Origin: Octopus sinensis
Taxonomy: Eukaryota
Reading direction: 5' to 3'
Length of the DNA stretch: 64,000 bases
Assembly: GCF_006345805.1 (NCBI RefSeq)
Contig: NC_043003.1
Coordinates: forward strand, 16,182,001-16,246,000
Part shown: in pieces, positions 1,722-57,024 of the stretch
Position numbering within the stretch: the first letter of the stretch is position 1
Layout: every line of letters begins with the position of its first letter
Translations under genes and position numbers: made by a program
Notes under the pieces: model-generated
Told to the model about the DNA's origin: nothing
Seen by the model: only the letters and a program-made list of their open reading frames with translations
Databases searched by the model: none

Positions 1722-1855
1722 GTGTATCGTTCGCGATTTTTTTTTCCTTCGTCTTCTTTTCTATTGGACTTTCCTCCGTCTCCTTTTTCTGAAGAAGAGC
1801 TTTGCTCGAAATGTGAAACCACTTTTCTTTCCTTCCCTGAGCGTCTGCTAATACT
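1722..1855 (+). mobile_element. Short hammerhead-bearing repeat (family F), degenerate copy
   Basis: ttt-CTGAAGA-agagc-ttt-gctc-GAAA-tgtg-aaa at 1786-1818. Flanks match copies at 25193-25390, 27418-27625 and 48213-48400. Helix III and the cleavage site are mutated. Confidence 0.65.
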
Positions 1856-2000
1856 AATATATATATATATTATTGTGTCTGGGGAGAGTCATTCTCCTTT
1901 ACTTAACACTCTCACCTGTTCGATTTTCACTCATTTACTTATTTATTTTTTCGAAAACATTTTCGTTGCGTCTTGCAAACTTTTCAATAGTCATTCATTC

Positions 2001-18739: not shown

Positions 18740-19192
<453 letters not shown>

Positions 19193-21769: not shown

Positions 21770-21985
21770 AATACTACTACTACTAATAATAATAATGATA
21801 ATGATAATAAGAATAATAAAATATAATAATATAATAATAATAATAATAGCAAAGCAACATCGAATGAGAACCCAGGTTCGAAATTTCCCCCCAACACCTG
21901 ATGAGGCTGGAGGGTTATTCAGCCGAAACGTTGTGTTAACAACAACCAGATGAAGACAAATTCCGTCAGATCTAAATAATGTAAA

Positions 21986-36588: not shown

Positions 36589-36935
36589 CTTCTCTGCACT
36601 AACCACCATACCTCAACCGTCTTACTCTGAACATCATCCCTTTAATATTATTCCCTTTTGCACGTCTTTCCTGGAGATGTTGACCCGAAATAGTGTGAAT
36701 AAAACATTAACATCAATCTCGCCATATTCATATTAAGAAATTCCATGTAGACGTTCTCTTAATTTAAATTTTTGTTTTATTTTCTTACGAAAATTCTTAT
36801 GATGGATCTCCTTATCATCGAGGAACTTTCTTATTAAAAGCACATCCTTAGCCCATCTTCAAGATTAGCCCTTGTCTTTTAAGTCAGAAAATATTTCAAC
36901 CCCCAACAACAAAAGGTTCAAATGAGGCGTCATAC

Positions 36936-37538
36936 CTATTTCTTTATTACCCAGAAGGGGCTAAACATAGAGGGGGAAAGCAAGGTCAGACAAAGGGATT
37001 AAGTCGATTATATCGACCCCAGTGCGTAACTGGTACTTAATTTATCGACCCCGAAAGGATGAAAGGCAAAGTCGACCTCGGCGGAATTTGAACTCAGAAC
37101 GTAGTGGCAGACGAAATACCTATTTCTTTACTACCCACAAGGGGCTGAACACAGAGAGGGCAAACAAGGACAGTCAAACAGATTAAGTCGATTATATCGA
37201 CCCCAGTGTGTAACTGGTACTTATTTAATTGACCCCGAAAGGATGAAAGGCAAAGTCGACCTCGGCAGAATTTGAACTCAGAACGTAGTGGCAGACGAAA
37301 TACCTATTTCTTTACTACCCACAAGGGGCTGAACACAGAGAGGGCAAACAAGGACAGACAAACAGATTAAGTCGATTATATCGACCCCAGTGCGTAACTG
37401 GTACTTATTTAATCGACCCCGAAAGGATGAAAGGCAAAGTTGACCGTGGCGGAATTTGAACTCAGAACGTAACGGCAGACAAAATACCGCTAAGCATTTC
37501 GCCCGACGTGCTAACGTTTCTGCCAGCTCGCCGCCTCG
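36936..37538 (-). mobile_element. SINE family B trimer (184-bp period) with 13-bp TSD
   Basis: GAAATACCTATTTC junctions at about 37119 and 37303. TSD TGAGGCGTCATAC at 36923-36935 and 37539-37551. Confidence 0.92.
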
Positions 37539-43111: not shown

Positions 43112-43445
43112 TATTAGAGACAAAACCACTATTTTGCAAAACAAACAAGGAAAGACTTAATCAATACATAAAATTTTAATAAATAGTCAAAAAAACCGCC
43201 ACTAAATTTGAAACTGACTTATTGGAAGTCCACCTGAAGATTGTCGATCAAGACAAGAAACAATTGTAGTGGCGGTTTTTTTGACTATTTATTAAAATTT
43301 TATGTATTGATTAAGTCTTTCCTTGTTTGTTTTGCAAAATAGTGGTTTTGTCTCTAATAATATTTTATAATATTTTACTATAAAATTGGATTTAATCCTA
43401 AATCTGATTTTTTTCCCCTGTAAATTTGGATTTATTCCCTAATAT
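43102..43445 (+). mobile_element. Family-H fold-back element with perfect about 103-bp inverted arms enclosing a hammerhead
   Basis: Arms 43102-43204 / 43267-43369, inserted in (TA)n. Confidence 0.88.
43230..43272 (+). ncRNA. Minimal type I hammerhead ribozyme
   Basis: ccac-CTGAAGA-ttgtc-gatcaa-gacaa-GAAA-caatt-GTA-gtgg. Helices I and II are fully paired and helix III is the palindrome ACAATTGT. Cleavage after 43268. Confidence 0.85.
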
Positions 43446-53921: not shown

Positions 53922-54341
53922 GCCAAGGCGGCGAGCTGGGAGAAACGTTAGCGCGCCGAGCGAGAATGCTTAGTGGTATTTTGTCTGCCGCTGCGTTCTG
54001 AGTTCAAATTCCGCCGAGGTCGACTTTGCCTTTCATTCTTTCGGGGTCGATAAATTAAGTACCAGTTACGCACTGGGGTCGATGTAATCGACTCAATCCG
54101 TTTGTCTGTCCTTGTTTGTCCGCTCTGTGTTTAGCCCCTTGTGGGTAATAAAGAAATAGGTATTTCGTCCGCCGCTGCGTTCTGAGTTCAAATTCCGCCG
54201 AGGTCGACTTTGCCTTTCATCCTTTCGGGGTCGATAAATAAGTACCAGTTACGCACTGGGGTCGATGTAATCGACTCAATCCGTTTGTCTGTCCTTGTTT
54301 GTCCTCTCTGTGTTTAGCCCCTTGTGGGTAGTAAAGAAATA
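53922..54341 (+). mobile_element. SINE-B dimer with 12-bp TSD
   Basis: TSD GGTATGTTGGTG at 53910-53921 and 54342-54353, junction near 54159. Confidence 0.9.
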
Positions 54342-54982
54342 GGTATGTTGGTGACTGTGGTTGTGATGATGATGAGAGCAATGGTAATTGCGTTTGTGAT
54401 GGCGGCGATTGTAACCATGGAATGTAAAAGAAGGACATTGTAGGCTTGCATCAGGTTTGTAGTGTTAATGGGTGATGGTCACTTTTTGTTGCAGCTACTG
54501 CAACTTATTGTTGTTGTTGTTGTTAGAGGAGAGCTGGAGGAGGGAATGGTCTATTGGTACTGGCAACGATGTGCAGCCACTACGTTCTGTGATAATGTTG
54601 TTGTTGTTGTTGTTGTTCTTGTTCTTCTTTTTCTTCTTCTTCTTCATGTTGGCATTCGCAGTATTTGAAACACTGTACCAAATAATAGAAAGATTATATC
54701 CACGCGCAAACACACACACACACTCACACTCACATACACACTCACACTCATATACACACCACAGACACACACATACACACACAAACACACAGAGAAAGAG
54801 AAGAACTTACACACTCTAAGATAAATTCAATTCACATACATACATATATACATACATATCTGTGTGCATATATGTATATATATGCATATATGCCTAAATG
54901 TACATATATGTATATATACTTACATGTACATATATATATCTATATATATATCTATATATATATATAAAAGTGTATAAAATAC

Positions 54983-56804: not shown

Positions 56805-56856
<52 letters not shown>

Positions 56857-57024
56857 AATTGCAGCGTGGAAGGTGTTTATAAGCCATTTAAGAAACACAC
56901 AAAAGCCGTTCGATTCACTTCAACATTTAAGTTTAATTTGTCAAAATATTTTCGTCGCTAAAATCCGCGACCTGTTCACTGACAAAAATCCGTGCTGCAT
57001 ATATATATTATATGTATATGTATG

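Follow-up and report, generated by a model that had tools for sequence, protein, structure and literature searches.

A hammerhead variant with a G3:C8 core pair in the terminal repeat of an octopus element that fits the Neptune type of Penelope-like retroelements

Is a hammerhead motif whose catalytic core departs from the strict consensus at the very two positions that pair with each other a fold kept by selection, or a damaged copy of an ordinary one? The question is raised by a motif on the minus strand of Octopus sinensis DNA, at 56937-56986 of the window, by which we mean the whole stretch of 64,000 nucleotides that was analysed. The sequence-only reading of this stretch had noticed a core GUGAACA in place of CUGANGA between intact helices I and II, and had suggested selection on the catalytic fold.

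Read from 56986 to 56937, the motif is UUUGUCA GUGAACA G GUCGC GGAUUUUA GCGAC GAA AAUAUU U UGACAAA and has the minimal type I form, all its parts lying on the minus strand. The two strands of helix I, placed by sequence and folding, are UUUGUCA at 56980..56986 and UGACAAA at 56937..56943, and core positions 3-9 (GUGAACA, 56973..56979, with G3 at 56979 and C8 at 56974) follow the family consensus. An additional G at 56972 stands between A9 and G10.1, helix II (GUCGC/GCGAC with an 8-nt loop, 56954..56971) is placed by folding, and G12 A13 A14 A15.1 are read directly at 56950..56953. Pairing between copies is predicted for the palindromic helix III segment AAUAUU (56945..56950), and hammerhead numbering puts the predicted cleavage site after U17 (56944) in a UUU triplet (56943..56944). 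Helices I and II enclose the core with the open end in helix I, as is typical for type I hammerheads, and G12 A13 A14, A15.1:U16.1 and H17, here U17, are present; from the strict core C3 U4 G5 A6 N7 G8 A9 the motif departs by G3 and C8, which make a G:C Watson-Crick pair. RNA folding agrees with the helices as first described, giving 7 bp in helix I and 5 bp in helix II at -14.7 kcal/mol (z -3.40), a stability equalled by 1 of 200 shuffles of 56937-56986. Our blind descriptor, which ignores positions 3 and 8, gave it a score of 15, found in 1 of 60 resampled windows. The motif is a hammerhead variant, outside membership by the strict consensus.

That standard CUGANGA searches would miss it was supported: Rfam returned no hammerhead match at E<=10 on a 138-nt stretch carrying the motif and, for the whole window, only microsatellite-driven miRNA matches among the matches listed (150 of 276). 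Two features first held against the motif turned out to be ordinary ones. The extra nucleotide before helix II, taken for a defect, is a conserved unpaired nucleotide between 9 and 10.1 in Penelope minimal hammerheads (PMC4209133), and is G or C in 11 of our 12 family representatives. The UUU triplet, taken as poor, occurs in an oyster example, and U17 stands in 24 of the 56 rows of Fig. S3 in the same paper by our own count; among our representatives 7 of 12 have it, a number that rises to 8 with the U17 form of family C. Helix III is unstable in the monomer (closed -7.9 vs open -13.3 kcal/mol, i.e. 5.4 worse), as is expected for minimal forms, since these need a dimer. The active dimer, at -27.2 vs -26.6 kcal/mol for two monomers, gains 0.6 only, and the minimum on cofolding, -31.3, belongs to a structure other than the active dimer.

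The motif resides in a solo pseudo-LTR (pLTR) of about 148 nt at 56853..57000 (minus strand), recognised by its flanks and its match to the full-length element L082 and assigned to what we call family A, in its short 3' end form. It sits between two (TA)n tracts as a microsatellite insertion, and over 143 nt it differs from the 3' pLTR of L082 by 2 mismatches and 1 gap. At 56853..56887 (minus) it carries the truncated start of a retroelement ORF (MAYKHLPRCNC...), known from full-length copies (L082/L140, L144, L145, L146), where it runs on into an RT-endonuclease ORF; the stretch at 56987..57000 (minus) would be the 5' leader, beginning 2 nt after the transcription start inferred for the family. 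A 22-mer spanning helix I and the core has 4,826 exact copies in the genome (G000), its reversed control 0, and a core-blind pattern found 4,421 family A copies there. Among the matches listed for that pattern (100 of 4,421), 94 have G3:C8, position 3 is changed in 2, position 8 in 4 and both in 0. G3:C8 is also present in 74 of 77 copies of a set chosen by the 3' pattern and in 4 of 5 older ORF-linked copies, the remaining one having a deletion. G3:C8 is the family A consensus, fixed in the family.

According to our analysis, the element behind this repeat is a retroelement. In L041 an ORF for RT, linker and endonuclease lies 1.3 kb upstream of the hammerhead motif, and the endonuclease region, used as query, brought up 152 matches, the longest open frame having 1,042 codons; the repeat was found at all 12 top long-frame loci, in 10 of them on the same strand and 1.1-1.3 kb after the ORF match. 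Recent family A copies carry ORFs of 700-1,042 codons. L082, full-length but for a frameshift, has the hammerhead-bearing repeat at both ends of a putative RT/GIY-YIG ORF which begins MAYKHLPRC 57 nt after the predicted cut and is followed by a 3' region of 1.2 kb, and full-length copies thus supply two motifs per transcript. We recognised the RT and GIY-YIG motifs by eye, in ORFs reaching 1,042 codons; Pfam, applied to ORF fragments, gave GIY-YIG at E 0.0012, below cut-off, and no RT family match, and a protein labelled Octopus vulgaris (P0003) is named an RT-domain protein by its source and matches G000 at 99%, which makes G000 a likely octopus genome. A Zn-finger-like linker, CQSNCAVC (CxxxCxxC), precedes the C-terminal endonuclease. 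We find the pLTR in partial tandem, inverted 5' copies, a 3' tail and microsatellite targets, all traits of Penelope-like elements; the family A copies often form head-to-head inverted pairs and have two alternative 3' ends about 55 nt apart. The motif itself has the extra nucleotide 9/10.1, G10.1:C11.1 and the palindromic 15.2-16.2 of Penelope minimal hammerheads and, like them, lies in the pLTR of an element with RT and endonuclease. Identity of the repeat as a MITE or SINE is ruled out by the ORF link, and family A fits, by description only, a Neptune-type Penelope-like retroelement as portrayed in the consulted part of PMC8557442. Two neighbouring arrangements were seen in passing: a second, more distant Penelope-like RT-endonuclease ORF beside the family A copy at L041:1448-3248 (minus), which served as outgroup of our tree, and, at about 6049 of L093, an ORF and 3' region of sister family B that run straight into the 3' half of a repeat of family A, possibly by template switch or nested insertion.

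If selection held the pair together, the sequence-only reading argued, the 3/8 pairs should covary across family copies. They do not, and on its face this is the outcome which that reading had named as a refutation: besides the 4,826 copies with G3:C8, 152 are changed at position 3 only, 288 at position 8 only and 10 at both, against 9.1 double changes expected under independence, and among these 10 there are 0 of C3:G8 and 2 of A:U, a double transition. Such independence is what one expects from neutral decay of inserted copies; it says nothing on the source elements, and the covariation signal is the one between families. The columns diagnostic for subfamilies in 232 distinct copies (our own reading of the column table) number 0 in the core, 1 in helix I and 4 in loop II, the 8-nt loop being variable among family A subfamilies; the sole helix I change is A to G, giving a G-U pair. 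This pattern lends modest support, as the 232-copy set is partly selected on the core.

Changes at position 3 are mostly transitions, and those at position 8, among the matches listed (100 of 288), are G in 48, T in 38 and A in 14. By our own tally C8G occurs in about 2.6% of family A copies vs about 0.4% for the same change elsewhere, i.e. about 7 times the baseline, and the excess, found in L187-L226, runs across all subfamilies. A G3:G8 subfamily as transition state from C3:G8 was considered and rejected: the G3:G8 copies occur in all loop-II subfamilies (40 loci) and are twice as diverged (4.0%, n=30, vs 2.0% for G3:C8 in 29 of 30 controls, p 0.002). Their spread and greater age fit recurrent change after insertion better, and a small old G3:G8 subfamily may exist.

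Between families the picture is another one. Sister family B, with an ORF about 50% identical to that of A, carries UUGAAAA (U3:A8) after the ORF in at least three loci (L086, L091, L092); it has 1,513 pattern copies, with U3:A8 in 93, C3:A8 in 6 and G3:A8 in 1 among the matches listed (100), and a helix I of 3 bp. The window holds a decayed pLTR of this family at 1861..1992 (minus), with core UUGAAAA, U3 at 1987 and A8 at 1982, 78% identical to L086 over 142 nt and broken at G10.1 and in helix I. The sequence-only reading had seen it at about 1950-1992 as a degraded relative of the main motif; the UUGAAAA motif with U3:A8 stands, and the kinship has to be redrawn, as the copy belongs to sister family B, whose consensus is U3:A8. 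Family C has CUGAUGC (C3:G8, C9) in 25 of 30 loci, and the three sister families of one genome (G000), A, B and C, thus bear G:C, U:A and C:G. As an observation in its own right, C at position 9 was recorded at L147:4646 (plus) and 24 other family C loci, and also at L114:2497. The usual partner of A9 is the general base G12.

Related loci from metagenomes, 26 in number, were searched with the blind descriptor, which requires U4-A6, GAAA and U16.1 and leaves H17 free. A score of at least 8 shortly after the ORF was reached in 9 of them: C3:G8 in L115, L118, L126, L129 and L130, U3:A8 in L114 and L116, and A3:U8 in L131:1710 and L127:2810 (plus), L127 being the weakest with a helix I of 1 bp. 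Among the other 17 loci, the 3' sequence is shorter than 200 nt in 9; in 4 a degraded C3:G8 motif can be made out by eye, and the last 4 offer nothing clear. The cut-off of 8 was chosen after the matches were seen, with about 0.75 chance matches expected in 25.6 kb, and five matches of score 5-7 (U:G, C:G, A:A, A:G, G:A) were left out.

All 12 of the resulting family representatives have a Watson-Crick pair at 3:8 (C:G 6, U:A 3, A:U 2, G:C 1). A covariation test on their alignment found 6 changed on both sides, a value as high in 0 of 500 shuffles, and six slid controls gave no two-sided change; all 6 families without C3 have the complementary base at 8, and full 3:8 matching among 11 lineages has a permutation p = 3.6e-5, with relatedness only partly removed. 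Pairing of helices I and II is preserved in each family although their sequences are unrelated, and 12 of 12 representatives retain U4, G5, A6, G12-A15.1, U16.1 and a base other than G at 17. The ORF tree, a quick version with SH-aLRT support only and 16 labelled rows, two of them labelled by eye, joins A, B and C at support 100 and C with B at 99, and requires at least 6 changes of the 3:8 label, which suggests that double changes happened several times and that G3:C8 arose once. The proposed selection on the catalytic fold is thus supported between families, with 12 of 12 paired and all four pair forms represented, and from this covariation it would be logical to suggest that a self-cutting fold, its cleavage being predicted, is likely kept by selection. 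We hold it to be fairly probable, judging from sequence comparison, that the motif is a minimal type I G3:C8 hammerhead in a Neptune-type terminal repeat, whose self-cleavage is slow and requires pairing with a second copy; likely cleavage is suggested because its relatives keep a Watson-Crick 3:8 pair through repeated double changes.

The ends of the copies suggest which RNA was used for insertion. For 98 distinct copies, chosen by a pattern 3' of the ribozyme among the matches listed (100 of 6,941), 66 of the 5' ends lie 41-63 nt upstream of the predicted cut and 9 further upstream, some of the latter being alignments into microsatellite; 13 lie between -36 and -4, 2 at the cut and 8 after it. 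The two that start at the predicted cut are microhomology junctions through helix I arms in inverted pairs, and a cleavage footprint in genomic 5' ends at the predicted cut is absent among the 98 copies. Where copies start at AGATG (-59), the preceding base is G in 30 of 43, and in read-through copies it is C or T in 29 of 29. When reverse transcriptase copies a cap, the trace usually left is an untemplated G. The upstream ends and this G together suggest that the template was probably a capped RNA, not cut, whose start lay just upstream of helix I, and the position of the ends argues against a simple processing role. A 3' splice site (CAG/ATG) upstream of helix I was considered as another origin of these ends; the untemplated G favours a transcription start, and no splice joint at CAG/ATG was found in four contig sets, which is a weak test.

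These ends are also what gives strength to the main rival, that the hammerhead fold is kept as a protein-binding site or as a control of the mRNA 5' leader and cleaves hardly or not at all, the 3:8 pair serving for shape only. The absence of a pile-up at the cut site in 98 copies and the capped look of the templates would suit it, and so would the loose core of the clade, a point against the preferred reading: family C has C fixed in place of A9 (25 of 30 loci), L114 carries C9 too, and helix I is short, 3 bp, in family B. The preferred reading is also met by the objection that the G3:C8 swap, made in the laboratory, rescues only partly. For the rival, ribozyme mutants of PAc, the Poseidon element of Anolis, had no effect on insertion in vitro and no RNA reads ended at the PAc site, by the consulted part of PMC11167929, and functions other than cleavage were left open by Cervera and de la Pena (PMC4209133). 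Against it stands the retention of U4, G5, A6, G12-A15.1, U16.1 and the non-G at 17 in all representatives, although of these the descriptor itself had asked for U4-A6, GAAA and U16.1. The 3:8 pair is also said, in work of 2006 by Martick and Scott, to belong to the active hammerhead conformation, with which passages of the literature consulted are consistent, and this counts against the rival. The PAc hammerhead, for its part, does cleave with protein, as the same part of PMC11167929 reports. On balance we regard a kept fold with little or no cleavage as possible, though rather unlikely.

Much less can be said for a decaying relic of an ancestral C3:G8, in which G3:C8 was fixed by drift in one master and the pairing came from chance and choice of matches. 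The independence of positions 3 and 8 within family A would agree with it, few masters per family would make G3:C8 a single event, and three of the five low-scoring matches that were left out are mismatched at 3:8. It is largely refuted already by the covariation across the 12 representatives. Against it stand also the complementary base at 8 in 6 of 6 non-C3 families (p 3.6e-5 for the 11 lineages, the effect of relatedness being again removed in part only), the helices I and II paired in all families and the long open frames of recent family A copies, and we find it very improbable. Still harder to believe is an efficient ribozyme making the 5' end or a circular form of the transposition template, which the two tandem motifs of full-length copies and the model published for Penelope elements (PMC4209133) would favour, and against which stand the 66 of 98 5' ends at 41-63 nt upstream of the cut, the 9 further upstream and only 2 at it, and the untemplated G that points to a cap. 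Both of these readings fit poorly, and the fold kept with little or no cleavage is the main rival.

Returning to the preferred reading, slow cleavage in paired copies, we can suggest the following course of events. Transcription of the element would begin some 59 nt upstream of the predicted cut, and the capped RNA would bear one hammerhead before the ORF and another at its 3' end, the two pairing via the AAUAUU palindrome. Cleavage after U17 would be slow and probably aided by the element's own protein, as is shown for PAc of the anole. Once the 5' motif was cut, the RNA would lose its cap and could serve neither translation nor copying. RNA that had escaped the cut would be the source of new insertions, and reverse transcription would set in at either of two sites in the repeat. 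The solo copy of the window may be seen as a passive solo product, having neither upstream sequence nor partner. We may even suggest, as a speculation that we consider unlikely, that one Neptune-type clade cycled the 3:8 pair through four Watson-Crick forms, the weaker of them acting as a dial: a slow ribozyme in the 5' leader would spare most of the capped RNA for translation and copying, and cleavage of paired, multi-copy transcripts would decap and limit the element. If true, G3:C8 and A3:U8 cores would here be seen in nature for the first time, and current descriptors would overlook such ribozymes by the thousand in each genome.

The window and the related loci hold other hammerheads and repeats as well. 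A canonical minimal hammerhead (CUGAUGA, 7-bp helix II, palindrome ACGU, U17) lies at 21888-21940 (plus) in a short repeat that ends at a (TA)n tract and has similar copies in L108, L109 and L191. Another canonical one, CUGAAGA with palindrome ACAAUUGU, at 43224-43275 (plus), belongs to a different repeat family and is 98% identical to a copy in L077, and two further CUGAAGA motifs with helix II GAGC/GCUY, at 1780-1825 (plus) and about 27550 (minus), have 17 blast matches among the loci. At L173:4265 and 4629 (plus) a UUGACAA hammerhead with U3:A8, helix II GGGG/CCCC, palindrome ACGCGU and C17 is repeated with 364-nt spacing, and the two together resemble a tandem retrozyme whose core carries U3:A8. 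Tandem arrays at 36932-37488, 53975-54346 and 18763-19062, with units of 184, 183 and 138 nt, apparently derive from abundant short interspersed repeats.

Compared with known systems, this is neither a new ribozyme class nor a new mechanism. With the Penelope minimal hammerheads of PMC4209133 the motif shares the type I topology, the extra nucleotide, G10.1:C11.1 and the palindromic helix III, and further the frequent U17, the place in a pLTR, the mostly solo copies and the opposite-strand pairs; the extra nucleotide is H in their consensus vs mostly G here. By our own count the 56 examples of that paper have C3:G8 in 53, U3:A8 in 2, U3:G8 in 1 and G3:C8 or A3:U8 in none, but its descriptors required C3-G8 or U3-A8. 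Natural U3:A8 hammerheads were published by Perreault et al. 2011 (PMC3088659), and family B, L114 and L116 are of this type; the consulted part of that paper names U3:A8 only, whereas family A has the double-transversion G3:C8. The small Penelope-associated variants of Lünse et al. 2017, as far as that source was available, are reported to have a diminished helix III, as here, and to cleave as dimers, as is predicted here. In the literature searched, with Lünse 2017, Przybilski and Hammann 2007, figures and most supplements set aside, we found no natural G3:C8 or A3:U8, the only match for G3-C8 being an engineered variant in the consulted part of PMC3884650, and A3:U8 is the second pairing for which no natural report was found there.

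The tertiary pair has mostly been probed by mutagenesis, and the families described here give it natural phylogenetic support, extending the set of C:G and U:A by G:C and probably A:U. Searches based on CUGANGA, as well as Rfam, overlook whole high-copy families, and some Penelope-like elements scored as having no hammerhead may therefore carry one. Three sister families with three different pairs in one genome make a matched natural series on the role of the Penelope hammerhead.

With the Neptune clade, as described in the consulted part of Craig et al. 2021 (PMC8557442), family A shares the order of a putative RT and a putative C-terminal GIY-YIG with a CX2-5CxxC linker between them; further common traits are targets of (TA)n type, 5' copies that are truncated and inverted, and a pLTR with tail. 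A Zn-finger-like linker is also present in Nematis, and our Neptune assignment goes by description and not by named reference proteins; a term search of the part of the supplement consulted did not find family A.

A parallel in behaviour is PAc, for which the consulted part of PMC11167929 gives uncut RNA as the main substrate and a hammerhead that cleaves only with protein. Both elements have a pLTR hammerhead next to the ORF start and no ends at the cut; the uncut template of PAc and its two reverse-transcription start sites making a tail are probable for family A as well, whose 3' ends about 55 nt apart match that tail. The ORF starts inside helix II in PAc vs 57 nt after the predicted cut here. 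C3G/G8C partly restores cleavage in PAc, by the same account, and in other hammerheads, which agrees with the statement of the sequence-only reading that compensatory 3/8 swaps rescue in part; PAc itself is C3:G8, and the G3:C8 that is only an engineered partial rescue there is the consensus of family A in the octopus.
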